Shown here: in pieces, positions 834-47,106 of the stretch
Layout of the letters: every line of letters starts with the position of its first letter
Numbering within the stretch: position 1 is the stretch's first letter
The notes under the pieces: model-generated
Database searches by the model: none
Seen by the model: only the letters and a program-made list of their open reading frames with translations
Told to the model about the DNA's origin: nothing
Made by a program: the position numbers and the translations under genes
DNA from: a virus
Lineage: Duplodnaviria > Caudoviricetes
Direction: 5' to 3' (one strand)
DNA length: 64,000 bases
IMG/VR virus record: IMGVR_UViG_3300032308_001420
Location: 1-64,000 of that record

Positions 834-837
834 AGAG

Positions 838-1450: not shown

Positions 1451-1679
1451 TTTTGTCTATAGTGCTTTCTACTATCTGCTGTACATAATCAGAAAAATGC
1501 TTTCTTATGTTTCCAGATGGCCTAGATCCAAGGGCTTTCCACAGCCTTTTATACTCAATTACATTGGCAAATGTGGTGGGGCATAGCATTACCTCATTAT
1601 ATTCTTTTAAAACTGTTGGCAGCGGTACATGCTTGCCACAGCACTTACACTCCTTGGCTTTCTCTTGATATATGCTCAT
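1431..1679 (-). CDS. Hypothetical Cys-containing (Zn-ribbon-like) protein
   Basis: CKCC..LCPT motif; ATGA overlap with terL. Confidence 0.7.
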   Translation of the reverse strand: MSIYQEKAKECKCCGKHVPLPTVLKEYNEVMLCPTTFANVIEYKRLWKALGSRPSGNIRKHFSDYVQQIVESTIDKNEDGTL

Positions 1680-3484: not shown

Positions 3485-4004
3485 TCACAACAGATTCAAC
3501 AATTCCTGTGATTTGAGATAATCTCTTAGCTACCTCCATCTTACACTTAGGGCAGGTAGAAGTAACCTCTTTTAATATCTTAACCAGAATGTCTTGCTTT
3601 CTTTCTGTGTCAGCAATTTGTGTTGCAAGCTCGGCGTTGTCTAATAAACCAACCTGCTGCAACATACCAATTCTTTTTGTTTCAATGTCTGAAATTAATT
3701 TTAAAGCAGTGGCCTTAACATTTAGCTGGCCAGATTGATCTGCGTCTTCAACCGTCTTCCAGGCCTCTTTGATAAGCATTGCATAGTGTTGGTCTGCACC
3801 AGAGATTGCCTCCTTAGCACGTTCTCTGGAAGATGTATCATTATGAATTACAGACTTCCATTCATCTATTAGCTCTACAACTTCGCCTCTTTTAAATCCA
3901 GTTATCGTAGCAATTTGTGTTGGAGTGCTACCTTTGAGAAGTTCCTCAACAACTTTATTCATACGATCATAATGATCTGCTAATTCAATTTCGATTGTAA
4001 TCAT
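3462..4004 (-). CDS. HTH protein, probable terminase small subunit
   Basis: N-terminal HTH (TPTQIATITG), helical body, CPKC near the C-terminus, directly upstream of terL. Confidence 0.6.
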   Translation of the reverse strand: MITIEIELADHYDRMNKVVEELLKGSTPTQIATITGFKRGEVVELIDEWKSVIHNDTSSRERAKEAISGADQHYAMLIKEAWKTVEDADQSGQLNVKATALKLISDIETKRIGMLQQVGLLDNAELATQIADTERKQDILVKILKEVTSTCPKCKMEVAKRLSQITGIVESVVIEDADVV

Positions 4005-9836: not shown

Positions 9837-9865
9837 TTAAACTCTTTCTTTACACTAGTATATCA

Positions 9866-10213
9866 TTAAAAACGGTTGCCGTGAAGTCTTGGTCTATCTT
9901 TATTTATGTTAATTTTATTATTTAAAACTTCATCTAATGAGTGTTGAATAATACCTTCGTTCATCATTGCTGCATAAAGGTCAAGTAGTCTAATTAGAAT
10001 GTCTGCCATTTCTTCTACTACATTTTCGCTACCTTTATCTTTTCTAATTGCTTCTAGAACTTCTGTAACTTCAGAATGAACTAATGCTAGTTTATTTCCT
10101 ATAACATTATAATCAACTTCTGTATCCCAAAATCCTTTTTCTACAGCAGTTTCATGCAGAATTGCTGACAGTGCATCTAGCCCATAATCAGTTACCATTT
10201 CAAACGACTTCAT
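9866..10213 (-). CDS. MazG-like nucleotide pyrophosphohydrolase
   Basis: LALVHSEVTEVLEA..EEMADILIRLLD motif. Confidence 0.85.
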   Translation of the reverse strand: MKSFEMVTDYGLDALSAILHETAVEKGFWDTEVDYNVIGNKLALVHSEVTEVLEAIRKDKGSENVVEEMADILIRLLDLYAAMMNEGIIQHSLDEVLNNKININKDRPRLHGNRF

Positions 10214-10397
10214 TTTCTATTTCCTTTAAGCTAAATGTAAATGAAGATTTTTCTTCATTATAATAGACTGCAATTTCTCTGCTGTCTGATGCTGCATTTA
10301 AAAATGTTGTTGTCTTAACATCAACACTCTTTACTGTATCTAATATAGATATAAGCAGCTGTCCAAGATTTAAATCTACTGGTAGTTCTTCTGACAT
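10200..10397 (-). CDS. Hypothetical protein
   Basis: Packed ORF with TAATG overlap. Confidence 0.7.
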   Translation of the reverse strand: MSEELPVDLNLGQLLISILDTVKSVDVKTTTFLNAASDSREIAVYYNEEKSSFTFSLKEIENEVV

Positions 10398-10627
10398 TAT
10401 TTCTCCACAAATATATTAACTATACCATTTGACCTAAGCCAGTCAAATGTTGCCATGAGTTGTTCTCTAGACTCACAGGTTTCACAACCATCAAACATGT
10501 CGTACGGTTGCCAATCTTCTGGGTTGTTATCCTCATCAAATAGGTGGTTATAACACATTTGCATATGATCAGAAACAAAAGACTCCAGACTCTCTGCCTC
10601 TTTTTGAGTTAATTTAACCTCAATCAT
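10397..10627 (-). CDS. Hypothetical protein
   Basis: ATGA overlap with dnaE; GCETC motif. Confidence 0.7.
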   Translation of the reverse strand: MIEVKLTQKEAESLESFVSDHMQMCYNHLFDEDNNPEDWQPYDMFDGCETCESREQLMATFDWLRSNGIVNIFVEK

Positions 10628-13600: not shown

Positions 13601-13893
13601 TTATTTTTAGCCAATAAAATAATATGGTTATAAGCTTGAATAGACTTATCGGTCTTAGATGAACGATCAAATCTATCTGTTGGGGATATGTACGCTTCTA
13701 CTCCAAGTATGGGTTTAATTCCTTGCTCTTTACATGCTATCTGCATGTCTCTGTGAGAGGATAATGTTCCATGATCTGTAATTGCTAGTGCTGTTTGTCC
13801 AGCATCTTTTGCTGCCTTTACAAGTTCGGCAGGAGAATTAAGCCCATCCATTAATGAATAGTATGAATGCACATGAAGGTGTGTAAAGTTCAA
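10624..13893 (-). CDS. dnaE: DNA polymerase III alpha subunit (DnaE-like)
   Basis: PHP domain HLHVHSYYSLMDG and TDHG, GPGRGSAAGS, PDIDTD, KLDALGL, YSFNRSH; TTG start with GGAG RBS. Confidence 0.95.
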   Translation of the reverse strand: MNFTHLHVHSYYSLMDGLNSPAELVKAAKDAGQTALAITDHGTLSSHRDMQIACKEQGIKPILGVEAYISPTDRFDRSSKTDKSIQAYNHIILLAKNKKGLENINTLQELAWNEGFYHKPRIDREVLNEYKEGIIVLSGCLNGLISKCIEKGEFKEAKIILQDFKKNFAEDFYIEVQSHNPQEINSKLLELADELKIKAVATGDAHFAKEEDRVLEEAMLILSTSPKMDKDADFDMSRNIKDINDRLNYLYPDRKISFQNYNLFIQSRSEIESDFNKSGINRTDIYDNTMEIADKVSEYDFYQGLDLLPVPKTDADEKLRELAEKGLESIQKASDPIYRERLEEELQVIASKSFASYFLVVADMINWAKDNNIKVGPGRGSAAGSLVCYVLGITEVDPIKYDLLFFRFINPERNDFPDIDTDFEDRRRKEVKDYLKKKFKYVASISTFTYFKDKGVVRDASRVFMVPLQEVNRALKSVDTFEDFVDSPNTKEFRLRYPEVVWLAERLRGRIRSVGVHAAGVVVAKDDIRKFAPVESREDAQDKVSGRIPVVAYDMDTVADIGLIKLDALGLKTLSVISDTLASIKERHGKDVVLSELTLDDKNVYKMLSEGYTKGVFQAEATPYTNLLMKMGVDKFEDLVASNALVRPGAMNTVGAAYINRKHGREAVDYSHTIMKEFTENTYGVIIYQEQVMQACVHLGGMSWSEADKVRKIIGKKKDAKEFDQFKDQFVTGASKHIAKKKAEELWHNFEAHAGYSFNRSHAVAYSMLSYYTAWLKSYYPLEFMFSILKNENDKDARTEYLIEAKRLGLRIRLPHINESDMYFSLKDDGIIFGLAEVKFISDSIANKIMERRPYETYSDFIDKASKKGSGINSRAISALNAIGGAAFADNPRQGNEKDNYYEYLGIPTFNLEGIPPRIKAQARPIEEFDDLGSFVMFGMVKSIKRGTGWARVELVDETGSIGLFHNEQTQIETNQMYFILVGDNRIARYIKVTDIDPKLPDMFVDYLYRKEYDLEDDEYIVVNFTPYTTKAGKTMSHIVLSNKDKELTRVIVFPTMYKMSLAKMREGMKCKPVLSKLDDGTLMVKEIK

Positions 13894-23978: not shown

Positions 23979-25697
23979 CTATAAAGTTCGACATGTAACA
24001 GTAGTCTCCAATCCTTGATTAAATGAGTTAGTCACGCTTGTTACAATTAACTTTTCGGTTCCGTCAAAATCTTGGTATGGAGAAGAAACTGAAACTATAT
24101 CTCCTACATTTAACATAGGGTTTCCAAATACGGTTAAGTTTACAATCTTTCCTCTATTTACAACTTTTTCTTTAATCCATGTTGCAAGTTCTTTTACTGC
24201 ATCTAATGTTTGCAGCCATTTTGATTCAAAAACAATTGGTTCTTTTGGACCGTATGTAAAGTCTTCATCAGTTATATACTCAAGAGTTCCTGAGTCTCCA
24301 ATTGTATTTCCAAACAGGTAGAATGAGGAACCAATTCCATCTGCTAGCGGTATTGTAGTTGAAGAATTATTTAGAACATACGCTTCCCCGCCAAAATTAG
24401 AATATTTTTGAGAAATAATTTTTGCTAATGGGTTGGCTCCAGTTGACCACCTTACTGGAACTGATGGCCTAGAATCAAATTTAATTTCTCTTTTAATTAT
24501 TTCTCTTACGGTTGTACCAAACTCTTCAAATGAGTTTAATTTTTTTGTAACTTCGTCATCGTCAGAATAGTTTAGATATTGATAATCGCCATAAAGATTA
24601 TTTAAGATATCATTTGAAAACTGCCCTTGATAAAAATTAATAGAATACTGTGAGTCCAAATATTCTTTTGATGTAATCTTTGAGGCAAACACATAGTCGA
24701 ACATTGCTGTTCCTTTTGTACAGATTAGTGCTACTCTATTTGTTGGAGCTGCAGTTTTATAATCTCCAGCAGCCTTTTGTAAACTTGCATTATCTGATGC
24801 AGTTATCTTAAATCCATTTATATATGCAGTTATATCTATATTGCTTTGATGGAACTTTACCTTTATATCAATATTGTATGTTTTACCGCCATAAATTCCA
24901 TCTAGGGTTGTATCTAATGATTTTTGGCTAGTACTTAAATCTCTAATCCCGCCATTATAAATTTTTACAATTCTTACTGTTTTATTGTTAGAGCCAATTG
25001 ATGCTGGGATAGTTTGAATTAATAAAGCATATCCTTCTTTATGAAACTCATCCATAAAAAACCCTATGCCAGCTCCCTGAATTGGATCTTCAAAAAGAGG
25101 AGTCATTTTTATGCTAGTTCCAAATGTAAAGTAACCTGGCTCTGAAGCATAAGAGCTTGCCAATATTGCACCAGTTCCTGGATTATATGTCCATGTATTT
25201 GCAAACGCCTGCAATGCAGGAAAATCTTTACTAACAATTGTAGACTTCTTTGCTTCTGTATTTGTTAATTGTAAATAAGATTTACCAACTTCAAGTTTTG
25301 CTGGATTTTTTGGGTCTGCTTTTATTCCAGAATTATTAACTGCAAAAACTTCCATATAGAATTTAGGCATTTCTGTTTTATTTCCAAATGCGGAAACATT
25401 GTAGGGAGTTATTGTAAAAACATAAATTCCTCCTTCTACTAAACCAGTAAGCGTTAAGGTATGTTCTTTTAATGCTGAGTTTACAGAATAATCTGGATCT
25501 GTAATCAATGACCCAGATAAAGCGCCTGTCGCAAGATACCTCTGTCTTGTTACAACATATTTTGTAGCTGTTTGTTCTGCAGAAAGTCTAACTATTATTT
25601 GTACAGACGTTAAAGATACTTGTTTAATCTCTGGTCGAATTTGAAGTGTTGCTTCTTCAATTCCATCGATTAGCAATCTGTTTGACCATGGTTGCAT
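23979..25697 (-). CDS. Minor tail protein (likely start MQPWS)
   Basis: FN3-like region; C-terminal GNPMLNVGDIVSV tail-hub motif; TAATG overlap with upstream gene. Confidence 0.7.
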   Translation of the reverse strand: MQPWSNRLLIDGIEEATLQIRPEIKQVSLTSVQIIVRLSAEQTATKYVVTRQRYLATGALSGSLITDPDYSVNSALKEHTLTLTGLVEGGIYVFTITPYNVSAFGNKTEMPKFYMEVFAVNNSGIKADPKNPAKLEVGKSYLQLTNTEAKKSTIVSKDFPALQAFANTWTYNPGTGAILASSYASEPGYFTFGTSIKMTPLFEDPIQGAGIGFFMDEFHKEGYALLIQTIPASIGSNNKTVRIVKIYNGGIRDLSTSQKSLDTTLDGIYGGKTYNIDIKVKFHQSNIDITAYINGFKITASDNASLQKAAGDYKTAAPTNRVALICTKGTAMFDYVFASKITSKEYLDSQYSINFYQGQFSNDILNNLYGDYQYLNYSDDDEVTKKLNSFEEFGTTVREIIKREIKFDSRPSVPVRWSTGANPLAKIISQKYSNFGGEAYVLNNSSTTIPLADGIGSSFYLFGNTIGDSGTLEYITDEDFTYGPKEPIVFESKWLQTLDAVKELATWIKEKVVNRGKIVNLTVFGNPMLNVGDIVSVSSPYQDFDGTEKLIVTSVTNSFNQGLETTVTCRTL

Positions 25698-27934
25698 TAT
25701 TCCCAGCTCACAATCCCAGTAGTCCAAACATTTGTATCTATTGAACTAACTGTTGGCTTATGTGATGCTGGCGTGGTGCCAAGGGCACCTCTTTTTTTAA
25801 CACGATACTTTCCAGTAGGCTGAAAATATTTAGCTTCAGATCTTGCTAAATATCTATACTGATTTAAATCTGTTGAAGATTCAATCCATACATTTTCTTC
25901 ATCTACGCCAACAACACCATCTTTTGGTAAGTATCTATATTCAATTGCATCGAACTCTATTATCTCAGAGTTAATTAAAAAATATCCATCAAAATTAAAT
26001 ACTGATTGAAGCTCACTATATTTATCTATTGTTGATAAATCTAAAACTAAGTTAGTATCTTCTGCTGGAGTGGTTGCTAAAATTTCATTCTTTAGTCCGC
26101 CTGCTGTTAAGTATGTTTCTGAAGACTGCCACAACGCAGCGCTTTGTCCTACATAACTTGAATTTGTTGGAGTGCTCCATAAAACTCTGACCTGGTTTGC
26201 GGAGGGAATTTCTTTTTGAGACATAGAAATGATATTTGGAAGATTTGATCCTGAAGCGGAATCACGAAAATTCCATGATGAAGATCTAGCTGTATCATAT
26301 ATATATTCTCTACTGTAAAACTGTAAAGTCCCATCGTCATCTATAAATGCATTCATTTGAATATCTCTACACAGCTCTTGTATATATTCCCAAACTGTCT
26401 TGTTGCCGTCGGTCCACCAATAACTAATTACTGGAATAGACTTATCGTCTTCTTTTAAATTAAATTGATAATTAGTAAATCCAACTGAATCAAGGAGTCT
26501 TCTTATAACCGCTGTTACTGGATAAAAATCACATAAAATATCTGGAGCAATTGTTTCCATTAATTGCTTAGCTCCATCTAAGGCAACTAAATTTAAATTT
26601 CCATATGAATCAATTGACCAGCTATCTATAAAATATACACCCTGATATTCTTTATCGTATTTATTTGGTGAAGTGCCCAAAGATCCGTCTGTATGATAAA
26701 TTATAAAGTAAGGCTTTATCTCTGCATTTTTAGTTAAATAAATTAAATCTGTAGGAGATGCAGGCCAACTTTCATCTCTATTGTATGGAACTATTTGTAA
26801 TGCATCTTGATTATACTTTACTGCAGAAATTTGAATACTGTTTGCTGTAACTTTTCCAATTGGCAAAATGTCTTGGGATGAGTCTGAAGATTCTTTTGTT
26901 ACTGTCATATTAACTATATCTGATGATATGTCTTTTACCCATCTAGCTGATATCTCAATTACTCCAATATATTTTCCCCCGCCTGCATTTGTTGCTTCAA
27001 GTCTAATTGATTTTATTGCTTGTGGGGTAGAAAAAGAATATGGCTCTGAAATAGATGTAGCGTTCCAGTTGGTTCCATTCCAATATCTTTCTATTCTTCC
27101 ACTAGATGGAGGTGCTGTATAGGTTGTAGTTATTGCAGCTCCAGATACTGGTGTAACAGTTATTCTGTACTGTGTTGGAAGAGAATGATTTTTCTCAAAC
27201 TGTACTACAATCTTGTTTGCATATGCAGGCTTTGTTGGCGTTGCAGTTCCAGAAGAATTAACAATTGTTGCCGTTGCTGATGCTCCAGTAACTGCTGTTC
27301 CAGTTGCTACATCTGATATTGTAAATGTTTTTTCCGTTGGTGTAGATTCAATAATTTTGTTTGATAGATTAAATGCACTTGTTGATAATCCTGTTATTGT
27401 TACTCTATTGCCAGAAATAAAACCATGATTAGAACTTGTTTTATATACAACCTTCTTATTTCCATCTTGAGTTGTGCCAGCGGAATATGCTTCAATTATT
27501 GTTGATGTACTCTGTACATACTTTACGGTAATATCTGCGTTATCATCTTTTGGTGTCACCCAATACTTATATGATGTAGATAGACCTGGATAATAAACTC
27601 TTGGCTGTGTGTTTGGATATTCTACTGTTCTGAATCCAGAAAAGCTATTTAGCGGGGTATCAACAGAAGAAATAATATAATATTTAATTCCAGAAGAAAG
27701 AGGCCTAAATGGTTTAATTACTGAGTCTACTGGAAACAACTTTTTAAAAGGATTTATTTGAATTGGAGATGCTGTTCCAACTCCATCTATATACTCTGAA
27801 TCTGTAGATGCAGTTACAGCTGTAATATTGTTTAACATTGTATTCATATTATATTCAATTGTTGCGCCTACATTAATTGATATAGATGAATTTTGATAAT
27901 AAACTGTTTGTAAATTTTCTGCAACTGTAGGCAC
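25697..27934 (-). CDS. Minor tail protein (Tal/hub-like)
   Basis: Follows Dit-like gene; TVWEYIQELC...FIDDDGTLQF motif. Confidence 0.7.
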   Translation of the reverse strand: MPTVAENLQTVYYQNSSISINVGATIEYNMNTMLNNITAVTASTDSEYIDGVGTASPIQINPFKKLFPVDSVIKPFRPLSSGIKYYIISSVDTPLNSFSGFRTVEYPNTQPRVYYPGLSTSYKYWVTPKDDNADITVKYVQSTSTIIEAYSAGTTQDGNKKVVYKTSSNHGFISGNRVTITGLSTSAFNLSNKIIESTPTEKTFTISDVATGTAVTGASATATIVNSSGTATPTKPAYANKIVVQFEKNHSLPTQYRITVTPVSGAAITTTYTAPPSSGRIERYWNGTNWNATSISEPYSFSTPQAIKSIRLEATNAGGGKYIGVIEISARWVKDISSDIVNMTVTKESSDSSQDILPIGKVTANSIQISAVKYNQDALQIVPYNRDESWPASPTDLIYLTKNAEIKPYFIIYHTDGSLGTSPNKYDKEYQGVYFIDSWSIDSYGNLNLVALDGAKQLMETIAPDILCDFYPVTAVIRRLLDSVGFTNYQFNLKEDDKSIPVISYWWTDGNKTVWEYIQELCRDIQMNAFIDDDGTLQFYSREYIYDTARSSSWNFRDSASGSNLPNIISMSQKEIPSANQVRVLWSTPTNSSYVGQSAALWQSSETYLTAGGLKNEILATTPAEDTNLVLDLSTIDKYSELQSVFNFDGYFLINSEIIEFDAIEYRYLPKDGVVGVDEENVWIESSTDLNQYRYLARSEAKYFQPTGKYRVKKRGALGTTPASHKPTVSSIDTNVWTTGIVSWE

Positions 27935-27935: not shown

Positions 27936-28406
27936 TTATACCTCTTCCATTGAAATAGATATATTCCAGTGTGCTTGAATTCCTCGTTTAACTAAATTAA
28001 ATGTGCAATCTGTAAATGATACAGTATGAGACTCATATCCAGAAGATGCTTGACCTACACCATTTTTTGCATAGTTAATTCTAATTTCAAATACACCTTT
28101 TCCTAGTGTGCTTGCATAAAATGTTCTTAGGTCTTCCGCTCCCCAGTATCCGTCTGCTGTTTCAGTTCTATAGGATGGAACTAAATCCCATGAAATACTG
28201 AAAGATTTTTTATCAGCAATAAAAAACTTTCTTAGTGTTCCGTTAGACATTCTCTGTGTTTGTTGAATTCTATTATGTCCTACTGTAAATGGGCCACGAT
28301 TATGGTCTGTAACGGTATTCCATTTTGTTGTTCCATCTCCGCCATTTGCAGAAGCATCTACGCCGTAGATTTGAAGGAGGGCTCCCCTAGGTAAAGTAAT
28401 AGCCAT
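27936..28406 (-). CDS. Distal tail (Dit-like) protein
   Basis: Directly downstream of TMP; RMSNGTLR..KKSFSISW. Confidence 0.65.
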   Translation of the reverse strand: MAITLPRGALLQIYGVDASANGGDGTTKWNTVTDHNRGPFTVGHNRIQQTQRMSNGTLRKFFIADKKSFSISWDLVPSYRTETADGYWGAEDLRTFYASTLGKGVFEIRINYAKNGVGQASSGYESHTVSFTDCTFNLVKRGIQAHWNISISMEEV

Positions 28407-34400: not shown

Positions 34401-37400
34401 TTTGCAGCAGAAGCTTTATCTGTAATAGTTCCAAAACCTTTATCTCCTAATACTGACAAAGCCTGGGCTGATTTATTTGAAATTGAAATTAATGCATATA
34501 TTAATTCATTTGCATTTTCTACAGACATCCCGCTTGATACAAACATGGCTTTTAGTTGAGTTGCTTTCTGTGCCAGCTCTTGCTCAGATGCTACATTTAG
34601 CATTTTAAGTTCTGTTGGTAACTGTTCCTTAGCTTGCTTTTTTAGTTCATCAAATTCTTTTACAGTTATATCTATTCCTTGACCAGGAGCTTTTGTTGTA
34701 GTATATTTAAATGCTGCCGCCGCTGCATTTCTTAATTCAATTTCCTTTTTGTTTTTTTCTATAGATGAAGTTAAAGTTTTATAGTTAAGATTTAGCTTTT
34801 TTACAGTTTCTTCTTCTAGGCCAAAGGCGGAGTCAATTATTCTTCGTCTCTCATTAATTTTGTCATTAATGGTTTTTATTGCAACTCCTACACCAAGCAA
34901 GACAGCTATTAATTTGACTGGCCCAGGCATTTTTGTAAAAAGTTGAAATGCTTTTGTTAATAAAGTTGTTTGAGTTCTTGCTGTTCCTGCAGCCCTAGAC
35001 ATAAGGAACATGTCTGTTGCCATTTGACCAACCATGTATCCGCCCATTTGCCCAATACCGCCAAACATTCTGCCGCCAACTTGACTTAATCCAAATCCAG
35101 CAGCCTGTCCTAGAAGCATTGACTTCATGTATCCAGATGCTCCAATTCTTGGCTGAACAATTCTTTGTTCGTTTTCTTCCGCAAAGTATTGAACCCCAGG
35201 AACTACCCCGCCCTTTGAGAATCCAGGAATAATTCCACCAGACATTTTTGGAACAAATATTTCTGGACCATTCTCTCCAACTAAATACGGTCTACCACCA
35301 GTAACTGGTCCTCCGCCTGCACGAGCACCGTCAACAACTGTCTCTAATTGTATTTTGCCATTTCCTGCATCAACAATTCTAAACTTACCGCCAAAGATTG
35401 CCTCTTGTTCTGACCTTGAATTATGTCCAGCTACCTTTTGTCCAAATGGTGCTGAGAATTTTGCATCTGGGAAAATCTCTGATGATGGAACAACATTTCT
35501 ATTTCTTACAATTGCTTCTAATAGAATAGCTTTTTGGTCTCCTGGAGCAGAATGGCCAGGAGCAAATAAACTTGCTATGTCCCTATTTTGACTCCACGAT
35601 GAGCGGCGCATTATAAATTCTCTTCCAATTAAAGGAGTATAGTCTCCAGTTAATTTTGCCTGAGATATTAAATCTAATATATCTGCTGGCAGCGGATTTG
35701 ATTTATTATTCTTTAAAAATATTCCTCTGTATAGTCTTCCAGTATATTTTCTTGATAAAGTTTTTACTGCTTCTGTAGCGCCTGGAGTTTGCAAAATGCC
35801 ATAGTTTCCAGCCATGTATTGACGCAATATATATTTGCCACGATCCTCTAAATTACCAATTGGGAACTGAGGAAGTACTGCTTGTCTTGCAAATCTATCG
35901 TCACGATATAAAATTTCACGAGTCCACTCAGGCTCATTTTGCATATTTTTTGGAACCATTGTTGTTCCAATTTGTAATGGCCCGTGAAGTGGATCTTGGT
36001 TTCCTAGTGTATATTGATATCCTGGTTGTCTAAACTGCTGTTGTGGTTTCCATTTTCCAGTTAATTTATCAAGCTTTGACTTAGATAAAGACTTTACTAT
36101 TCTTCCAACCATGTTGGTTCCAAAGTTTTGTATGATTCCGCCCATATTTTTTCTTTGTATTCTAGCTACTTTATTTTCTTTTAGGGCAACATAATCTCGT
36201 TCGTATAATGCGGTTGGATTGTATTGAGTTAAAACTCTTTCTATTTCTGGAATTACATCTTTTGTAAAAGTAAACTCTGCGCCAAGCTCTGGTCTATCTC
36301 CTATAGTTGGAAGTTGATCTACTGAGACACCACGTCTTTGTGCTTCGTTTTCAAATCTTGTTCTTATTGCTGAATCTATTGCTTCTTCAGCTTCATCCCA
36401 TTGAGAAAGAGGAATTTTTGCAGCTCTTAATTGATTTCTATATTTGTTTACTCCTGCTACCTTAACAAGGTCTCTTCTTAAAAAGTCGGATGGTCTAAGG
36501 TTATTTTGGTTTGCTGATAAATTAGTTGCCGCTGTATAATCTACAATATAGTTGCTTACTAATACTTTTCCATCTCCTAGTTTTTTACTTACTGTAAGAT
36601 GCGTACCATGTCTTGGCTCTGCATATGGAAGTGCATCTAGTCCATTTTCTACAAACCTTGAATTTAATTCGCTAACATTTTTTGACTGTAATGTTCTTGA
36701 TGTTTGAGAATGAAGTGCTGGATCTTTTTTAGACCTAGTTAATTTATCTGTAAAGTTTTTAGCTACATCTAAATATTTTTGTTTTAATACAGGATCTGGA
36801 ATATCACCAATTTGAGAAATAAATCCTCTAGCATCTGCCCCTCTTGCTTTTATGCCATGAACAGTTTCTACTACATCTCTATTTCTAGTTGTAGAAAGAC
36901 CTTTAACAATTCTATTAGGCATCATTCTGCCAAAGAATTGCATACCCTCTATCATTCCGCCTTTATTTTTATTTTGAATTGGAACTATTACCGCTTTACC
37001 CTTATTGTATAGATGAAGTCCTTCTGGGTCACGAGCTGTTTGTTCTTTAGTTACAACAAATTCTCCTGGAGTAAGCATTGCTGGAACGGTATCTGTATTT
37101 CCTTGACCAGGTACAAATCTACCTTGTTCGGTAGTAAATACCTGTCCGCCCATGTTTAATCTTTTTGGTCTAGTTGTTTCTGTTGAATATGGTGCGCCAA
37201 ATGTTTTAACTCTAAGCGCTTCAGCAATTCTTGTAATAAGGTTTCTGTTTCTTGGTCTTGTAAGTTCTTTCATATTTGATTTTCCAGTTACTGGGTCAAA
37301 TGCTGGTTGATCTACAATTGGCAACTGTGTTAAATTAATTGTTCTTCCTTGTGCAGTAGCAACTCCTGTTGCTGCCTGCCCCATCATTGCTTCAATCTGT

Positions 37401-39865
37401 TGGTTTAATGCAATAACTCTTGCTCTTGCTTGTTCAACAGTTATCTTAGATGCTTGAAGATCTGCAACTATTTGTGCTGATTCTGATGCGGCAAGTGATG
37501 TTAATCTTGACATTTCTGGAAGAAGCGCTTGATATGAATCTGATAATGATGTAGTTATTAGTCCAGTTGCTGCAACTTCTCTCTTTAATAATGCTATTTC
37601 TTCTTTTGATTGCATTGCTAATGCACCAGTCATTGCATGCCACTTAGCAGCTTCTTCTGCAACAATTCCTGTTGAAACTCCACGTACCGAGCTGACTCCC
37701 TCTATCTTTGGTAGATCGCCAGACATATACATTTGTGGGTTATTGCTTATTTTTTGATTAACTAATGGTGCTCCTGGAACAATGCCAAATATTGTTTGTG
37801 CAGCTTTTTGTTCTGGTGTCATCTGGCTTACTGGATTTGGATGAGAAAAAGATCTAGTATCTCTATCGCTTACAAGTGGGTGGCTTGGAACAACTTCTCT
37901 TGCACCAGCAATAATTGTTTGCCCAGCAATTGTTGATATTGTTGGTTGTGATGAAATTGTAGCTGATCCTGCTTTTGTTTGTAATTGAGTTAATTGATCA
38001 TTTACATAGCTAAGCGCTTCTCCAAGTGCCATGGCTGCTTTAGCATCATTATAAAATGTTTGCTCTACTAAGTTTCCAGCTTTTTGTGCTGCTAAAATTT
38101 CTGGTGTTAATAAACGCCATCCTTCGCCGCCTTTAAAAAATGCTCTAAGATGAGCGGCGCCCTTAACAACATATCCCAAGAAGTTTGCCAGCACACCAGT
38201 TAACATAATAATTGGGCCAGCTAATGCTGTAAATCCAGCAAATAGGCTCATTAAAGTTTTTACTGGTCCAGGTAGTTTATTCGCAAAATTTACAATCTTG
38301 TCAAGAACATTTATTAAAAATGTTCCAACATTTAAGAACTGCTCTCCTACTCCAGCCAAGTCTGCTTTTAGTTGCTCTAATGCTCTACGGAATCTACCAG
38401 AAGCAGATTCAGTAATTTGTGCTAATTCTCGTCCAGCTACACTTGCTAAGTCACCTGCGCTTGCATTCATTAAATCTAAAACTTGTAAAGTCTGGCTACC
38501 CTGTCTACCTAGGTTATCAAAAAGGGCTGACAGTCTAGCAAATTGGAACTTACCAAAAAGCTGTTCAATTGCTTTTGTTTTGCTAAGCGGATCAAGTCTG
38601 TCTAAAGCTTTTTGCAAATCTAAAATAGTGGCAGTTAAATTTCCAGCGTTACTTGTAACAATTTGACCTAAATCAATACCAAGTCCCAGGAACATTTCTT
38701 TTGCGACTTTAGTAGGATTGATAAGTGAAGCTAGGGATGATTTAATTGCATTTGCGCCTTCTGATGCATTAATTCCTCCTTCTTTCATTGCTGTCAAATA
38801 TAAAGCAAGATCTTCTATGTCTCCACCCAAAGATTTAACTACTGGACCCGCCTTTGGAATAGCTTCTACTAAATCATTAAGAGTTGTTGAAGTTTGGTTT
38901 TCAACAGCGTTGAGGAAGTTAATAGACTCTGCTAACTCTTGAGTATTTTGATTAAAAGCTGTTTGAATTGCAAGAGTAGCCTTCATTGCTTCTTGTCTAT
39001 CTACTTCACCAAGAACTGAAAGTCTAGTAGTTTCTCTTACTGAGTTAAGAAGCTCTGCTCCTTGTTTTCCAGTTGCAGCTATATCTGCAGATAGGGCTAT
39101 AGTTTCTTTATAAGATGCGCCATATTGTCCTGCTAATTCTTTTGCTGTTGCAGCAACTTCTTTTCTTACTGTAGCTAACTCTGCTGCAGAGCTTCCTGCT
39201 ATTCCGCCATAAACTTTTGTTAAACGAACTAACTGCTCGTCTGCTTCTCTAAATGCATCTGCTGCTGCTTTACCAAATGCTGCAATTGGAACTGTTAAAC
39301 CAACTGTTAGCTGTCTACCTGCCCACTGTGTATTTTTACCCCAGTTAATTAATTGAACTCCGCCATCTTGAATAACCTTATTAAAGATTTGCATTTCTTG
39401 CTTAAGCAGAGCTGCTTTGTTTTTAGTTTCGTCTAAACCTCTTGGTATATTAACATTGAATTGCATAAGCCCCTCGGCATTTCTACCGAGAGGCTGAATG
39501 ATTGCATTCTGTAAGGCTACCTGCTGTCTAGCAAGATCTCTAATTAATCCGCCAGAAGTTCTACTGTGCTGTTGCCAGACACCGTAATACTCTCTTAACT
39601 TTAATCTACCCTGATCTAAATTTTTTCCAAATTTATCAACATCAGCTGTTAAATTAACAAAGTGTGTAGAGAATTGTCCAGTACTTCTTAAAGTACTTGC
39701 AAAGCCCTGCTGTATCTTTGTTGCATTTAAAGCTAACGCTTTATCTGTGTTAGTTAAAGTTTGCTTTAATTGAGATAACTGAAGATTAACCTTATTAACA
39801 TTTGAAATAAGATCTGAAAAGTCTGCACTAGCAACTATATTGGTGACTACATTTTCGCTAGCCAT
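28406..39865 (-). CDS. Tape measure protein, 3819 aa, with embedded CHAP, LysM, ART-like and kinase-like domains
   Basis: Follows the tail chaperone; TP901-type TMP core (GRQLTVGLTVPI.., AMKEGGINASEGANAIK); hydrophobic segments; CHAP WCGAF..HVGLV..TIEGNT; LysM YTVGRGDTLSAIA. Confidence 0.93.
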   Translation of the reverse strand: MASENVVTNIVASADFSDLISNVNKVNLQLSQLKQTLTNTDKALALNATKIQQGFASTLRSTGQFSTHFVNLTADVDKFGKNLDQGRLKLREYYGVWQQHSRTSGGLIRDLARQQVALQNAIIQPLGRNAEGLMQFNVNIPRGLDETKNKAALLKQEMQIFNKVIQDGGVQLINWGKNTQWAGRQLTVGLTVPIAAFGKAAADAFREADEQLVRLTKVYGGIAGSSAAELATVRKEVAATAKELAGQYGASYKETIALSADIAATGKQGAELLNSVRETTRLSVLGEVDRQEAMKATLAIQTAFNQNTQELAESINFLNAVENQTSTTLNDLVEAIPKAGPVVKSLGGDIEDLALYLTAMKEGGINASEGANAIKSSLASLINPTKVAKEMFLGLGIDLGQIVTSNAGNLTATILDLQKALDRLDPLSKTKAIEQLFGKFQFARLSALFDNLGRQGSQTLQVLDLMNASAGDLASVAGRELAQITESASGRFRRALEQLKADLAGVGEQFLNVGTFLINVLDKIVNFANKLPGPVKTLMSLFAGFTALAGPIIMLTGVLANFLGYVVKGAAHLRAFFKGGEGWRLLTPEILAAQKAGNLVEQTFYNDAKAAMALGEALSYVNDQLTQLQTKAGSATISSQPTISTIAGQTIIAGAREVVPSHPLVSDRDTRSFSHPNPVSQMTPEQKAAQTIFGIVPGAPLVNQKISNNPQMYMSGDLPKIEGVSSVRGVSTGIVAEEAAKWHAMTGALAMQSKEEIALLKREVAATGLITTSLSDSYQALLPEMSRLTSLAASESAQIVADLQASKITVEQARARVIALNQQIEAMMGQAATGVATAQGRTINLTQLPIVDQPAFDPVTGKSNMKELTRPRNRNLITRIAEALRVKTFGAPYSTETTRPKRLNMGGQVFTTEQGRFVPGQGNTDTVPAMLTPGEFVVTKEQTARDPEGLHLYNKGKAVIVPIQNKNKGGMIEGMQFFGRMMPNRIVKGLSTTRNRDVVETVHGIKARGADARGFISQIGDIPDPVLKQKYLDVAKNFTDKLTRSKKDPALHSQTSRTLQSKNVSELNSRFVENGLDALPYAEPRHGTHLTVSKKLGDGKVLVSNYIVDYTAATNLSANQNNLRPSDFLRRDLVKVAGVNKYRNQLRAAKIPLSQWDEAEEAIDSAIRTRFENEAQRRGVSVDQLPTIGDRPELGAEFTFTKDVIPEIERVLTQYNPTALYERDYVALKENKVARIQRKNMGGIIQNFGTNMVGRIVKSLSKSKLDKLTGKWKPQQQFRQPGYQYTLGNQDPLHGPLQIGTTMVPKNMQNEPEWTREILYRDDRFARQAVLPQFPIGNLEDRGKYILRQYMAGNYGILQTPGATEAVKTLSRKYTGRLYRGIFLKNNKSNPLPADILDLISQAKLTGDYTPLIGREFIMRRSSWSQNRDIASLFAPGHSAPGDQKAILLEAIVRNRNVVPSSEIFPDAKFSAPFGQKVAGHNSRSEQEAIFGGKFRIVDAGNGKIQLETVVDGARAGGGPVTGGRPYLVGENGPEIFVPKMSGGIIPGFSKGGVVPGVQYFAEENEQRIVQPRIGASGYMKSMLLGQAAGFGLSQVGGRMFGGIGQMGGYMVGQMATDMFLMSRAAGTARTQTTLLTKAFQLFTKMPGPVKLIAVLLGVGVAIKTINDKINERRRIIDSAFGLEEETVKKLNLNYKTLTSSIEKNKKEIELRNAAAAAFKYTTTKAPGQGIDITVKEFDELKKQAKEQLPTELKMLNVASEQELAQKATQLKAMFVSSGMSVENANELIYALISISNKSAQALSVLGDKGFGTITDKASAAKSTLETFNNVIKNGNTDQLSKSLDTALNAYNNLADSIENTKDKNGKLITSSESYQEILKQIKATSSGNVAIGIEGVNAIVKQNAEMNRLLNTTDTLASIMAKVRLSTSGIALDFVNMGPAAAEALSIIIEKQREALKSGPYSQIVKDMAKVSKTNAEQIIQNAELSAKALRKEIELHNKKIQKIKEEADARKKALDEENADEDINLRIKAKQLEYQDKLAAGDMSGAAQAQIAIQQLVGSQQVALAKRAIDLKAEEDISKEQSLIDALNARIDGLQNKVDSAKKTADAANAKVENLSSLLTELLALTTSATDGELSPTEKDRLNLLISDLEKAGYKDIARSLSGGGGSYVGSRFVPNPSGIEEIAKSAFGKAIYNEKGELKTSDTEVLGLLKKILSGTPTPTSGTKLSFDPATGGFQNRSTGVKYTREQARVMPVPVGGPAGSNQSFVHPTYGGGQSLEMLGPIKDVNQGGYLYKKNGDVLKNNKLVGRWYNPGYDNPGSNFTFAQGGAVKHYAPGGDVMGPGTSTSDSIPAYLSDGEYVIKASSVEKASRDLGPDFLDNLNAGRFANGGKVTKMGTADSMIKTAESMLGYKEGRGNDTIFGRFAQKAYDLQTRYIAWCGAFINWAAKKSGVDLSSMIWTPGGAQSFMKSGKWTTMSPVRGDLAFMDFPGDGVNRISHVGLVRKVLSKNAVSTIEGNTSGSGSQRSGGGVLAKVRQYNMKNAPIVGFGRPSYKPVDTIKYGYGTPEYYSADDAKSDYENDRYTVGRGDTLSAIAAKYGISVKQLMEMNPQLNDPKYMGGSRIFAGTKVNIKKFAQGGKVTSSFDDSGNWIKGPLTVPRQKKPGVPYSRSGKPIGNPFGQYWGELSRFIGPRSPGMDIWGGTEIPGLKFSGNVPQHSDYMHQMAEQPRKPFTSPGMGIDRDPMRMAGSGASMGGIGSGAYGLGPLMFAGGGRVINPLSDYGPSRLANGGLASKQSLLSKFMHKFLKTMDPFKFGKHSLGYDFLGGKEVANVFSGTGNKLDYLSAALLPLGGVGRGAAKVPGAISKLTPEMKSFGMADIDAKAVQDLSKLDPSSIKIPETGITFSPSSAKEALKGWIQEGSLSKAGAGAWELVQAQREALLKAKYPKIDFSDVGKFNEYYAKEFYDLLPDDVIKLFKGVRNTAGSAWRTGERDLSTYFSTNPHIAALYSAMIGSAKLGEELPMFGIDKKISQLTNFLGEGAVRNSKAQGSMEFPQLLSGKDLLESLPEIYSLPAKVYGQMFGDAPKTLKLVKNVWPFGFADGGMVSSAPHAMGMSSFGSSSPAKKQNWFQRYVSSLSGMPGAETFGTAALLRKIAGQGRKGDSLSAAMLPLNFMGAGLGSKIGGISKAASAAASSPIKIKMGKTTKDINDVIKFPELLDYTEFKTLESNVPASLNITQLVEHIKSGDTGYLKSLNEITPDEVRREIFGSIFAGKAGLVAPVIKPYKTPYSFPHNLGIFSKSVDEISKGSITEKIIVEKLSKDPMFWSAFKPLENVSALPTRTFAALGMTSERSYRNAILDALGYSDAHGGNLIINPIGKKAGAIDFGRIGDSKHSLDIFGDQQKSIDRLKNRYYQGLSYLPESERDAYLEGLQRAQSTLSGIKDSDLIEMLSASGYSADSMPIKLYKQYIENVKTAIESRLSSKKIVGWDEDIPKISADADWYKKTNYGDTSDYAMGGPVRKYAGGGLIGKLAGILSKSKDLAYKPINLFNQYMNYFKAKKMVKKGMFHGSADLGQNSDGPFSGVTDLSGDYARDPYYGMGFYGTSSKAEADLYAGGYNVPGQWGESYGSVNKITKIPFGKYLDFSKDLKRQNYGLWSLLSKEGFMGAGENLGPLMNKSGMTGSIMPRINAGQTGDISIDTAKWIALNKPKGTILEELGLGFARGGYVNPSSYSNMSVPAYAMGGAVGPRYNIPTNTVSLGKNQIPGYNKGGAVHHYDVGGFVVNAQPGQDEKMIATMVVDMLDQKNVMRAAMTGVGRRN

Positions 39866-39875: not shown

Positions 39876-40247
39876 TTACCCCTTTTCATATCCTAATCCC
39901 GCTCCGATTCCAAATCCTGCCTGGGCTGCAAGTGGTCCTTGTAGTGAAACAACATCGTTTGCACCTGCATTTATTCCCAAGGCTCTTCTTTGTATATCTT
40001 CAAAGGTTGGACCTTCTTGTTCTTCTTCATCTTGACCTAAATCAATTCCTTGAATAGATGCTAAGAATCTTCTTTTCTCTGATTCAGTTTTTTGCATTGA
40101 CTTTAAAGTCTGAATGAGTTCTGGCATTGATAAGTTATCTTCTAGCTCGTCGTAATTCTTCCAATGACCTAAAAGAAAAACTTCTCCCAATAAAGCGGCA
40201 AGATCTAGTTCTGACCAGCCAGAACCGCTGCCGCTAGAAGGTTTGGG
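39876..40247 (-). CDS. Tail assembly chaperone, -1 frameshift extension (gpGT-like)
   Basis: The -1 frame is open from slippery C CCA AAC (40241-40247) and reads PSSGSGSGWSELDLAALLGEVFLLGHW. Confidence 0.8.
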   Translation of the reverse strand, partial: PKPSSGSGSGWSELDLAALLGEVFLLGHWKNYDELEDNLSMPELIQTLKSMQKTESEKRRFLASIQGIDLGQDEEEQEGPTFEDIQRRALGINAGANDVVSLQGPLAAQAGFGIGAGLGYEKG

Positions 40248-40537
40248 TCATCCATCTTAATTCCTCCGCATACTTCAAGAATGCGGTTGATTGTTGGAAC
40301 ATCCAATGCGTCTTCTAGTGCATCTCTATCTTTTACTAGATCTGGCAATTGCTTTTCTAATGCTACTGCACATGCATCAATGAGAATTGTAAGCGTCTCA
40401 TCCTCTGATGTAACTTCTGCTGTCTTCTGAATTGCTGCCATGAACTTTCTAAGTTCTTTAATTGTCAAAGGCTTTAACTTTACCTTAGCCCCGTTTTGTA
40501 GTTCAATTTCTTCTACGTCGTAGATTGTAGTTGCCAA
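40205..40537 (-). CDS. Tail assembly chaperone (gpG-like)
   Basis: Lies between the major tail gene and TMP; TTG start with GAGG RBS. Confidence 0.85.
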   Translation of the reverse strand: MATTIYDVEEIELQNGAKVKLKPLTIKELRKFMAAIQKTAEVTSEDETLTILIDACAVALEKQLPDLVKDRDALEDALDVPTINRILEVCGGIKMDDPNLLAAAVLAGQN

Positions 40538-40643: not shown

Positions 40644-41363
40644 TTATGCATAAACACGGTCAATAATCTTACCGTATTCTTGGCCAGCGTATGCAGCCTC
40701 TCCTGATGGGAGAAGACGGAATGTTACTGGGAATGTTGTTGGTGTGTTACGTGCTAGAGAGAACTGTGACTGCTGTACTGAAAGAACACGACGTGCATAA
40801 TATACACGCTCATTCTTTCCGTAGCTGTTGATGTTGTAATCTGGAGCTGGTCCAACTGCAACTAGCTGACGCTCAACTGGTGCAGAAAGCAAAGCTCCTG
40901 CTGCCAAACCGAGTACCTGTGGTGTTGAAGATGTTGGCTCTGCTGTTGTTAGAGTATCATCTCCATCGAATCCTGATGCCTCAGTGATTCCAGATGCGCC
41001 TCCTGGCTGACCGAACACAACGAGAAGATTCTCAAGTGTTCCTTCTGCCATTTCAGTTGCTAGCATAACTTCCATTGACTCCTTGAACAGCTTAGCTGTA
41101 TCTAGAAGCTGATCTACCGTTACGTTACCGTATGTTGGGTTATAAGTAATCTGAAGACCATTGTTTGTGTATCCAACGTTGCGCCACTTTGTAGTTGCCG
41201 CATTAAGTGTAGTGATATATGATGCAGATGTGTTGAACTCTACCTTATCAGTACCCTTTGTTGGATCAAGATTTGAATCGCCATCGTATGCTGCTTGGTT
41301 GATAAACAACGGTGAAGCACCAACGATAATGTTCTTGGCTGAATTGTATGTATCTCTTGCCAT
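40644..41363 (-). CDS. Major tail tube protein
   Basis: NIIVGA, VGYTNNGL, VTVDQLLD, EGTLENL and FPVTFRLLP motifs; GGAGG RBS. Confidence 0.85.
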   Translation of the reverse strand: MARDTYNSAKNIIVGASPLFINQAAYDGDSNLDPTKGTDKVEFNTSASYITTLNAATTKWRNVGYTNNGLQITYNPTYGNVTVDQLLDTAKLFKESMEVMLATEMAEGTLENLLVVFGQPGGASGITEASGFDGDDTLTTAEPTSSTPQVLGLAAGALLSAPVERQLVAVGPAPDYNINSYGKNERVYYARRVLSVQQSQFSLARNTPTTFPVTFRLLPSGEAAYAGQEYGKIIDRVYA

Positions 41364-45756: not shown

Positions 45757-47070
45757 TTATCTAATTAATTCTTGTACGGAACCGAGGAAAGAACCGTTCC
45801 ATTTTGACTTCTTTATTGTAGTTACTTCCTGAGACCCGCCAAGGTCTGAGGACTTCTTAATTGCAGTCTCACCTTCTACTGCATCGACACGCTTCTGTAC
45901 GCCATCAATCGTGTTTCTGATATCTGATACTGTCTTTGACAATGTATCATATTGCTCTGCCAACTCTGTAATTCTGGAATCAACGCTCTTGCTGAAAGAC
46001 TCAACTGTTTCTGTAACAGTCTTAACCTGTGCAGCATTTGCATCTGTTGCCTTACTTAGAGTTTCTGAGAAAAAGCCTTTTAGATCGCCTAACATCTTTG
46101 CAAAATCAGGTTCATCAACCTCAACTTCTGATACGTCGGCTGCTTTTTCCAGAGTTTCGGCAGAAGCGTCTGCTACTGCATCTTCTGCAGGAGCTTCTTC
46201 AGCAGCTGGTGTTTCTTCAACAACAGGTGCTGTCTCTTCAACAGTGGTTTCTTCAACTACTGTGGTTTCTGTATTTTCTGACACTTCATTACCTCCTTCT
46301 GCGTTTGCCTGTTTTGCAATTGTTTGTGTTTCAGGCAACGTGGATCTTGACTTGTGTAAATCAAGAATTCTATCTATTTCTTTTGCTTTGTTAACATCAC
46401 TTGATTCTACCCAACCAATTAAGGTTGCAGGCTTTCCTGATATTGGTGAATCAAATTCTTTTTCTGTTGATACAAAGATCGAATCGCTTTCTTCGCAATA
46501 AAAAATATTCTCTGTTACGACATCTGCCGCCATGCCCTTGAAAATCATTTTTCCATTCATCTTTTCAATTGACAAAATGTTGCAAAGTTCATTTGCTGGT
46601 GAATCAACAATTGAAAGTTCAACTAGCTCATAGTCTTTAATGAAACGAACTGTTTCTCCATTTGCCTTGTTGACTTCATTGTCTGACTCTAGAATCTTTC
46701 CGCCAATTGAAAAACCTGCAAGTGTTCCGTCTAGAACTTTCTCCCAGGTATCCTGTGCGCCTTTTGAAATGTAAGATGTTACATAAACTCCATTGTAAAA
46801 TTCTTTTGATGCGGGATCATAATAAGTTTCTGGCTTAAATGATACAACCTTGCCAACTGCAATTGGCTGATGCATTTCACGAAGATTCCCACGGAATCTT
46901 TCAAATGCTTTCATGCTAGCTTCTGCTGTAACTACATCGCCAGTCTGATCAACGTTATCTAGTGTTGCAAATCCTGATACTGTTCTCTTCTCACGATTTA
47001 CTTTTGTAAATGGAACTGCCAGATGGAGGTTATTTCCATTTGAAGACCAGTTAGATTTTTCAATGTTCAT
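45757..47070 (-). CDS. Prohead protease fused to an acidic scaffold region
   Basis: GFAT..VDQTGD, REMH, GFSIGG, ELSIVDSPAN; E/A/T-rich linker and coiled coil. Confidence 0.88.
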   Translation of the reverse strand: MNIEKSNWSSNGNNLHLAVPFTKVNREKRTVSGFATLDNVDQTGDVVTAEASMKAFERFRGNLREMHQPIAVGKVVSFKPETYYDPASKEFYNGVYVTSYISKGAQDTWEKVLDGTLAGFSIGGKILESDNEVNKANGETVRFIKDYELVELSIVDSPANELCNILSIEKMNGKMIFKGMAADVVTENIFYCEESDSIFVSTEKEFDSPISGKPATLIGWVESSDVNKAKEIDRILDLHKSRSTLPETQTIAKQANAEGGNEVSENTETTVVEETTVEETAPVVEETPAAEEAPAEDAVADASAETLEKAADVSEVEVDEPDFAKMLGDLKGFFSETLSKATDANAAQVKTVTETVESFSKSVDSRITELAEQYDTLSKTVSDIRNTIDGVQKRVDAVEGETAIKKSSDLGGSQEVTTIKKSKWNGSFLGSVQELIR

Positions 47071-47077
47071 ATGCTTA

Positions 47078-47106
47078 ATTTTATCTATTTGTAGATAAAA
47101 AGGCAA
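47078..47106 (-). promoter_or_regulatory. Promoter for protease-capsid (probably leaderless), with palindromic spacer
   Basis: TTGCCT-17-TAAAAT, 7 nt before ATG 47070; TTTTATCTA/TAGATAAAA inverted repeat. Confidence 0.6.

Follow-up and report, generated by a model that had tools for sequence, protein, structure and literature searches.

Can the tape measure protein (TMP) of a phage tail, which is known as the ruler that sets tail length, also be a vehicle for enzymes directed at the host? The question is raised by a 64,000-nucleotide (nt) stretch of viral DNA (positions 1 to 64,000 of the IMG/VR record IMGVR_UViG_3300032308_001420, Caudoviricetes; hereafter the window), which contains the gene for a giant TMP in which a short glycine-glycine (GG) motif recurs between segments that look globular. 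An earlier note, made from the letters alone (the sequence-only reading), had proposed that these segments are enzymatic cargo, namely a CHAP and LysM pair, three domains resembling ADP-ribosyltransferases (ARTs) and a kinase, and that the motifs between them act as processing sites or recombination joints, as in polymorphic toxins. We consider it likely that this siphovirus TMP does carry host-directed enzymes and is a tail-borne form of what has been called a polyvalent protein, their delivery being something that we infer from the way TMPs behave.

The claim that the protein is a TMP held up well. Its gene is a single open reading frame (ORF; Table 1) that runs for 11,460 nt without any stop codon, the Pfam family PhageMin_Tail (PF10145) matches residues 240-438 (E 1.1e-27, 97.6 bits against a cut-off of 33.2), the first ~900 residues match nine PHROG tape-measure families (best PHROG 10030, E 2.1e-123) and, going by the PHROG matches of its neighbours, the gene sits between the chaperone/major-tail side and the minor tail genes. 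Because of these matches and of this position among tail genes, the ORF is a genuine TMP of a siphovirus-type tail module. Its proposed limits had to be redrawn, since position 28406, given as the start, is actually the end of the ORF and the gene reaches 39865, past the 37170 that had been suggested. Megablast of the gene against 50,697 deposited phage records gave no match, and searches with the whole TMP and with an alignment of its first ART-like segment (ART1), in the genomes of 185,579 prokaryote species, one per species, gave no relative.

Two AlphaFold2 (AF2) models were computed from alignments of relatives, model B for residues 966-1560 and model A for residues 2785-3819, with a mean predicted local distance difference test (pLDDT) of 60.3 and 59.7, respectively. 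Within model B, the ART1 part has a pLDDT of 62-85. When residues 1337-1512 were compared with the PDB using Foldseek, the seven matches at E<=0.001 were ARTs without exception (headed by Vis at 3.4e-5, with Certhrax, HopU1 and C3 after it), and VIA put VIP2 first (Z 10.4, root-mean-square deviation (rmsd) 3.0, 138 residues aligned), with ranks 1-14, all at Z>=8, occupied by ARTs throughout. The catalytic arginine, serines and glutamates listed in Table 1 are invariant in 11 of 11 aligned sequences. By fold and catalytic residues, residues 1337-1512 are an R-S-E ART domain of the VIP2/C3 type, with predicted activity. Pfam gives no family at E<=10 for residues 1241-1516, and ADPrib_exo_Tox (PF03496) does not match; the Atlas leads were DUF4765 (0.88) and, at rank 14, ADPrib_exo_Tox (0.87).

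The kinase seen by the sequence-only reading is recognisable by its fold as well. The kinase part of cargo I was modelled with a pLDDT of 84-97, and Foldseek found CtkA (2.4e-4), then PRPK, PI4KIIIb and PI3Ks, the 23 listed of the 24 matches at E<=0.001 all being kinases. VIA returned 20 chains at Z>=8, including CtkA (Z 14.2, rmsd 3.6, 216 residues aligned), HipA (11.8), PI4KIIa (11.2), MavQ (10.8) and also actin-fragmin kinase. K3251, E3264, D3365-x-H3367-x-x-N3370 and D3384-F-G are invariant in seven of seven sequences, and it is by this combination of fold and motifs that the core of cargo I is a CtkA/HipA/PI4K-like kinase, again with predicted activity. The kinase of the window has no match at E<=1 to the Pfam families PI3_PI4_kinase, HipA_C or ABC1; among 39 aligned kinase rows, ABC1 matches five (best E 0.014) and PI3_PI4_kinase one (E 0.16), all below cut-off.

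The CHAP and LysM domains were both matched by Pfam above cut-off, as had been claimed, CHAP (PF05257) marginally so (7.7e-6, 26.8 bits against a cut-off of 26) and with additional matches to PHROG endolysin families down to 8.1e-20, while the whole TMP run with phmmer against PDB sequences gave LysM/LytE-type matches only. As for the three ART-like domains, ART1 stands by fold and residues, the C-terminal segment J probably, with moderate support, has an ART fold of the H-Y type and the third, segment H, could not be upheld, with a conserved half modelled below pLDDT 50 and no relation in hhalign comparisons of H with ART1, H with J and ART1 with J beyond shared C-terminal tails. The HGS and GFYGT..SK..Y motifs of J are conserved at >=90% in 36 sequences, with D3643 or E3669 as candidates for the third, acidic residue; J was modelled with a pLDDT of 66-93 and its VIA neighbours are an ejection protein of cyanophage A4 (Z 6.8), MbcT (6.7), the catalytic domain of diphtheria toxin (6.6) and ParT (6.3). 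The J of the window has no Pfam match, and three of six scanned J relatives have sub-threshold ones, to ART-PolyVal (PF18760; E 0.0019, 19.4 bits against a cut-off of 31.2, in L043) and, in the two others, to DUF3990 (0.019-0.025). For H, the Atlas lead was ART-PolyVal at 0.82 only. A homologue search with residues 967-1554, which include cargo G and ART1, gave six matches, all of them unnamed. In the BFVD, model A has as neighbours large phage proteins annotated as ADP-ribosyltransferase, PI3K/PI4K catalytic domain, ART-PolyVal-like and 'large polyvalent protein associated'. Ahead of H and of the kinase lies a glycine-rich, hydrophobic leader ('LSAAxLPL...G.G'), which in relatives is also found before some copies of J and ART1; speculatively, it may help membrane passage.

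Is this cargo exchanged? A search for related loci gave 25, with complete TMP ORFs of 2417-4141 residues on nine full-length, independent IMG/VR loci, the last 1186 residues of the window TMP gave 117 matches in a protein library, many of them within proteins of 2000-4400 residues, and three further scans gave 15, 22 and 7 loci with the kinase, J and H, respectively. The family is sizeable and has so far been seen only in metagenomes. Ninety distinct relatives of at least 1900 residues share one plan, consisting of core, slot 1, second helical region, joint module m3 and slot 2, the contents of which vary. In the window TMP the layout is core, m1, slot 1 (G and ART1), m2, second helical/hydrophobic region, m3, slot 2 (CHAP-LysM, spacer B, H, kinase I and ART-like J) and, at the C-terminus, a tail with four joints. 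Elsewhere J lies in slot 1, between m1 and m2 (P0055 and L060), ART1 lies near the C-terminus (L056 and P0112), there are two kinases (L030) or J comes ahead of the kinase (L033), and many relatives have long stretches unlike any part of the window TMP. The core (51-82% identity in relatives) and the second helical region are conserved; among the collected relative proteins, segment B has 43 matches, the C-terminal tail has 42 and G has homologues in two (P0008 and P0034). Some 8,400 residues of other cargo in the relatives L035, L031, L025, L014, L006 and L030 have no Pfam family at E<=0.01.

The most telling comparison is that with locus L027. Over gene nt 9300-11174 (residues 3100-3725, kinase plus J), it is 94.5% identical to the window TMP gene at the nucleotide level, while the remaining long stretches that match (core, ART1 and B) reach 71-76%, and the 94.5% block begins at the GG of FADGGMV (MKLGGMV in L027) and ends in FARGGYV, which marks one recent transfer of the kinase plus J cassette from GG motif to GG motif. 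Directly upstream of the block, where the window has H, L027 has a different segment. Together with the varying orders and slots in the 90 relatives, this bears out the expectation that cargo varies between conserved linkers, and we conclude from these alignments that related phages exchange enzyme cassettes at GG joints. The sequence-only reading had named in advance what would speak against it, namely segments without enzyme folds or colinear TMPs without exchange at the linkers, and what was found when this was looked at is enzyme folds and exchange. The likeness to polymorphic toxins that it had drawn extends to this exchange of cassettes and is confined to it.

As a side observation, the replacement segment of L027 (ORF residues ~2830-3130, nt ~9074-9976) comes after the same FANGGMV joint and leader and has, by eye, an R-S-E-like order of motifs (..VSYRGL.., ..VRSITND.., ..SHEGL..), so that it may be another type of ART.

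The joints themselves are clearly not a product of composition. All 17 copies listed by the sequence-only reading are present, within about 10 nt of where it had placed them (starting at residues 903, 966, 1239, 1515, 1549, 2325, 2334, 2387, 2634, 2767, 2785, 3098, 3513, 3522, 3721, 3740 and 3767), and one more, YDVGGFV, starts at residue 3776, so its 'about 14 linkers' was an undercount. There are 13 copies of the strict pattern [FYWM][ANSGD]xGGx[VIL], where 2000 residue shuffles yielded 0.33 on average and never more than 4, and 21 of a looser pattern, for which the shuffles yielded 1.8 on average and at most 7; strict copies are absent both from the core (residues 1-900) and from the second helical region (residues 1556-2250), and total 386 over the 90 relatives. 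In relatives, a GG motif lies just past the end of the cargo in 21 of 22 copies of ART1, 25 of 33 of J, 14 of 21 of the kinase, 7 of 9 of H and 3 of 3 of G, compared with 16% of random positions, and it starts a median of one residue after the end of the cargo domain. When the places where BLAST matches to the window TMP end internally are taken as breakpoints, 222 of the 435 fall within 10 residues of a motif, where 11.3% of positions do, as do 8 of the 12 breakpoints seen at least 10 times. Since the codons of the motif copies differ (on average 11.6 of 21 nt are the same between copies) and no long direct DNA repeats were found in the TMP gene, the repeat is kept at the protein level. The idea of recombination joints hence survives in part, as exchange boundaries in the protein, while the same two observations led us to reject DNA-level recombination sites.

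Where does the joint come from? GG motifs form both ends of the small modules m1, m2 and m3, and they also come in pairs spaced by 9 residues, while the last 100 residues contain four of them. Module m1 cross-matches m3-type modules of relatives, m2 comes after ART1 in 21 of 22 ART1 copies of relatives and m3 aligns well in 31 sequences. A tblastn search with m3, as a query of 83 residues, gave matches in 646 of 50,697 phage records, and nearly all of the 25 listed matches lie under annotated TMP genes, in Gordonia, Mycobacterium, Pseudomonas, Burkholderia and other phages. In Rhodococcus phage GuyFagieri (OR434027.1, L069), the TMP of 1738 residues has YATGGYV, m3, MNNGGYA and FATGGIV, then embedded stretches and then YDTGGLL. 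Because of this spread of m3 and of the GuyFagieri layout, the joint appears to be an old TMP building block that has been multiplied in this TMP family, and it may mark embedded domains in TMPs generally. As to its structure, AF2 modelled a beta-hairpin over YDVGGFV and a terminal helix in the C-terminal tail (pLDDT 57-75), and a three-copy complex prediction for m3 (score 0.16 against a mark of 0.42) speaks neither way. We also observed by eye that stretches at residues ~1097-1487 of the GuyFagieri TMP resemble a metallopeptidase and a lytic transglycosylase.

How could such a protein work? TMPs sit in the tail tube and leave first at infection, and the T4 ART Alt, which is delivered from the head, acts on the host early. 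The TMP of the window would (i) be packed in the tail lumen largely unfolded and as a trimer, because a folded domain of 270 residues is by our estimate wider than the ~4-nm lumen, and (ii) leave the tail at infection, whereupon parts of it would refold. The CHAP-LysM pair would then attack the cell wall, the hydrophobic helical regions would help build a channel, and the ART(s) and kinase, refolded in the cytoplasm, would modify proteins of the host at an early stage, before phage gene expression. It is in the cytoplasm that these enzymes would have to act because ARTs need NAD+ and kinases ATP, both of which the periplasm lacks. The GG joints, inherited from a common TMP module, would be flexible or hairpin-forming boundaries that let each unit fold alone and, as they would tolerate insertions, selection would keep those recombinants whose breakpoints lie at joints.

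Several points weigh against host-directed cargo in this TMP. Both AF2 models average a pLDDT of ~60, most joints lie below 50, and eight TMP segments searched against Pfam at E<=10 gave chance-level matches only. Sequence profiles do not reach the PDB relatives that the folds do, that of ART1 finding no relative, only CptN at 0.048, and that of the kinase designed helical repeats only. The Z values of J are under 8, where the tool warns of a merely common arrangement. Two of the segments are without assignment: H was modelled confidently only at residues ~2874-2974, which are helical, its conserved half staying below pLDDT 50 (in the alignment for model A, ~49 N-terminal residues of kinase rows lie under the end of H, which may have harmed its model), and G, which reaches a pLDDT of 77-95 in parts, has weak fold matches (best Z 5.2). 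The joints do not flank cargo evenly, a motif being found within 200 residues upstream in only 8 of 21 kinase and 13 of 22 ART1 copies, compared with 37% at random, and when breakpoints are clustered and left unweighted, 17 of 94 lie at motifs where 10.6 would be expected, a weak excess (P=0.03). CHAP and LysM, with a periplasmic role, and the ART and kinase, with a cytoplasmic one, are on one chain, C-terminal of the hydrophobic region, which a single uncleaved topology fits poorly. Finally, presence in the virion, ejection and arrival in the cytoplasm are projected from what TMPs do.

The topology problem would disappear if the GG motifs were proteolytic sites, cutting at or after Gly-Gly freeing CHAP-LysM in the envelope and the ART, kinase and J in the cytoplasm, an explanation that is compatible with host-directed cargo but that we regard as rather unlikely. 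Gly-Gly cutting is used by double-glycine leader peptidases, by adenain and in the polyprotein processing of African swine fever virus, the chain has its own Cys-His peptidase in CHAP, and the motifs are where such sites would be wanted, right after the cargo domains, in stretches left unstructured by AF2 and between enzymes of different compartments. However, the 75.7-kb contig (~70% complete) has no match to a C39 or C48 peptidase model, the other protease found on it being an HK97-type prohead protease only, cuts at the motif pairs 9 residues apart and at the four motifs in the last 100 residues would free nothing useful, and the same motif ends a module that is common in ordinary, smaller TMPs.

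Less probable still, and in our opinion quite improbable, is that the embedded domains are dead or envelope-acting filler that sets tail length or aids penetration, their shuffling being neutral mosaicism. It is established that TMP length sets tail length, wall-degrading domains within TMPs are known (reportedly in TM4, and by eye in GuyFagieri), the other cargo of relatives mentioned above is without Pfam family, and H and G have no assigned activity. This explanation nevertheless sits badly with the catalytic residues, which stay invariant in ART1 (11 of 11 sequences) and in the kinase (7 of 7) even where overall identity drops to 24-38%, a pattern that speaks for activity being under selection, and with the dependence of these enzymes on NAD+ and ATP, which are lacking in the periplasm. 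Furthermore, the same domain types are found in head-delivered polyvalent proteins, according to the BFVD neighbours and to the relevant part of PMC5512222. That the long ORF stands for several fused genes or a chimeric assembly instead of one protein, for which one could invoke a metagenomic contig that is linear and ~70% complete, is very hard to believe given its 11,460 nt without a stop, the uninterrupted ORFs with the same plan on nine full-length loci of other contigs and the 117 library proteins, many 2000-4400 residues long, that match the C-terminal third.

If host-directed cargo in the TMP is indeed the right explanation, one can go further and picture, tentatively and with somewhat more doubt than confidence, a large, hitherto undescribed family of uncultured siphoviruses that use their TMP as a modular 'effector train', with [FY]AxGGxV as a universal joint between which ART, kinase, hydrolase and unrecognisable domains, some with the 'LSAAxLPL' leader, would be inserted, reordered and, as cassettes, passed from phage to phage. 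The cargo would travel unfolded through the tail and be released, perhaps by cleavage, disarming defences before phage expression.

How does this compare with known systems? To our knowledge, those polyvalent proteins that are injected with several enzymes have until now been linked with the phage head or with conjugation machinery, and TMPs carry at most wall-degrading motifs. Mycobacteriophage TM4 is said to have a TMP with embedded muralytic motifs (Rpf-type). The window TMP resembles TMPs of the TM4 type and that of GuyFagieri in having non-helical enzyme domains in the C-terminal half, and in GuyFagieri GG motifs and m3 flank the embedded domains as they do here. Known muralytic TMPs, however, have one or two wall-degrading domains, whereas that of the window has at least four kinds of enzyme, including an ART and a kinase, in two slots, and is 2-3 times longer. 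The kinase is like HipA, CtkA and PI3/PI4 kinases in its fold (Z 14.2 to CtkA, 11.8 to HipA) and in the order of K, E, DxHxxN and DFG, and unlike them in being embedded in a structural protein, with 10-16% identity to the solved chains.

The closest parallel is with the polyvalent proteins of phages and conjugative elements, which have many effector domains on one polypeptide, ARTs, protein kinases and peptidases being among the commonest, and for which injection with DNA was proposed and recombinational variability suggested; their carriers, as described in the main-text parts relevant here, are head proteins (MuF, portal and the virion RNA polymerase (vRNAP) of N4) or substrates of type IV secretion systems (Iyer, Burroughs, Anand, de Souza and Aravind, 2017; PMC5512222). 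The window TMP likewise has at least two effector domains of the conflict type (ART1, kinase and CHAP, with J probable), but its carrier is a TMP rather than a MuF, portal, vRNAP or relaxase protein, and its cassettes are split by a conserved GG joint. The word 'tape' has no occurrence in the main text of PMC5512222, whose supplements or external lists could contain TMP fusions. ART1 is also comparable to T4 Alt and to the MuF-VIP2 fusions of actinophages, such as Microbacterium phages, which are virion-carried R-S-E ARTs thought (PMC7302621) to modify proteins of the host as the phage enters. The head is where those ARTs are packaged, whereas ART1 lies inside a TMP and has no Pfam ART match. 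Polymorphic toxin systems, as outlined in part of PMC3482391, similarly exchange enzymatic cassettes on a conserved delivery scaffold, but here variation occurs at several internal sites as well as at the C-terminus and delivery would be via a phage tail. No fusion of a TMP with an ART or a kinase was found in the literature covered, which included main-text portions of PMC5512222, PMC7824862, PMC7302621, PMC11318856 and PMC12002296. What is new here is a probable polyvalent effector carrier that is tail-borne and delimited by joints, the polyvalent theme itself being already known.

The implications would be manifold. If TMPs carry NAD+- and ATP-dependent enzymes, (i) the tail lumen would be a second route for protein delivery, (ii) a defined joint motif would be at hand for locating cargo boundaries in thousands of unannotated TMPs and (iii) these proteins would be a reservoir of unrecognised domains, candidates for anti-defence or host-takeover functions. 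A further matter touched by it is how a 'ruler' of which much is non-helical can set tail length. By our estimate, 3819 residues in fully helical form (1.5 A per residue) would measure about 570 nm, whereas about 1,600 helical residues and compacted cargo would come to roughly 240-340 nm.

Table 1. Features of the TMP gene and of its tail-module neighbours, with positions in the window and residues of the TMP.
Feature	Residues	Position	Strand	Remarks
Whole TMP gene	1-3819	28406..39865	-	Single uninterrupted ORF, 3819 residues
TMP core	1-902	37160..39865	-	Helical; hydrophobic segment near residues 540-580; no strict GG motif
Joint module m1	903-972	36950..37159	-	LNMGGQV ... TDTVPAMLTPGEFVV ... 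KNKGGMI
Cargo G	973-1238	36152..36949	-	Alpha/beta and helical
Cargo ART1	1246-1514	35324..36130	-	VIP2/C3-like R-S-ExE ADP-ribosyltransferase by fold and residues: R1380, S1423-x-S1425, E1486-x-E1488
Joint module m2	1515-1555	35201..35323	-	RAGGGPV..YLVGENGPEIFVP..KMSGGII..FSKGGVV
Second helical region	1556-2250	33116..35200	-	Coiled coil and hydrophobic segments rich in glycine; strict GG motif absent
Joint module m3	2325-2393	32687..32893	-	FAQGGAV, YAPGGDV, GPGTSTSDSIPAYLSDGEYVI, FANGGKV
CHAP-type cysteine peptidase/amidase	2396-2560	32186..32680	-	C2440, H2499
LysM peptidoglycan-binding domain	2583-2631	31973..32119	-	Pfam PF01476, 5e-12, 46 bits against a cut-off of 20.9
Segment B	2641-2766	31568..31945	-	Pro/Gly-rich conserved spacer; no Pfam match
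Cargo H	2792-3097	30575..31492	-	N-terminal 'LSAALLPL' adaptor; conserved FKGV/WRTG, TYFSTNP, AQGSMEFPQ
Cargo I	3105-3512	29330..30553	-	Adaptor to ~3204 ('LSAAMLPLNFMGAGLG') and CtkA/HipA/PI3-4K-like kinase core, residues 3236-3483
Cargo J	3529-3720	28706..29281	-	Probable H-Y-type ART fold: H3568 in MFHGS, Y3602 in GFYGT, Y3613
C-terminal tail	3721-3819	28409..28705	-	Four GG motifs, then helix
Tail-assembly-chaperone-like gene		40205..40537	-	Upstream of TMP; PHROG 344, 7.8e-4
Ig-domain tail protein gene		40644-41363		Upstream of TMP; PHROG match
Minor tail protein gene		25697..27934	-	Downstream of TMP; PHROG 10359, 8.8e-65
Second minor tail protein gene		23979-25727	-	Downstream of TMP; PHROG match

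Two minor observations concern the cargo itself. The best structural neighbour of J is a region (residues ~1419-1606) of chain B of PDB 9k3a, the cyanophage A4 pre-ejectosome, that is, a podovirus ejection protein; ADP-ribosylation has no occurrence in the main text of the A4 paper, and this ejection protein may carry an unnoticed ART-like domain, as judged from its structure. A short 'FPxLL..dL..L' stretch is found both at the C-terminal end of H (residues ~3043-3091, window 30590-30740) and at the start of the kinase core (residues ~3205-3238, window 30160-30260), three MAFFT modes all aligning the N-termini of the relatives' kinases to the end of H; it could be a shared sub-element or chance.

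The source record is a 75,684-base IMG/VR virus record, classed as linear and ~70% complete. With a GC content of ~0.34-0.44 in the window, the hint at an actinobacterial host that came with the sequence-only reading is without support. Among the tail genes, positions 23979-27934 (minus strand) contain two adjacent, slightly overlapping ORFs of 745 and 582 residues, which match profile positions 112-612 and 673-1077 of the 1081 of one PHROG minor tail family, and this pair may be a split or frameshifted distal tail gene. The HK97-type prohead protease was matched (Pfam S78, 9e-8) over profile positions 93-153 only, in an ORF of 449 residues at 45757-47106 (minus strand). Its length is more than one would expect of a protease by itself, so this ORF may be a fusion of a protease with a scaffold or capsid protein. 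Lastly, the 1089-residue DNA polymerase encoded at 10624-13893 (minus strand; PHROG 405, E 0) indicates that the phage carries its own replicative polymerase.

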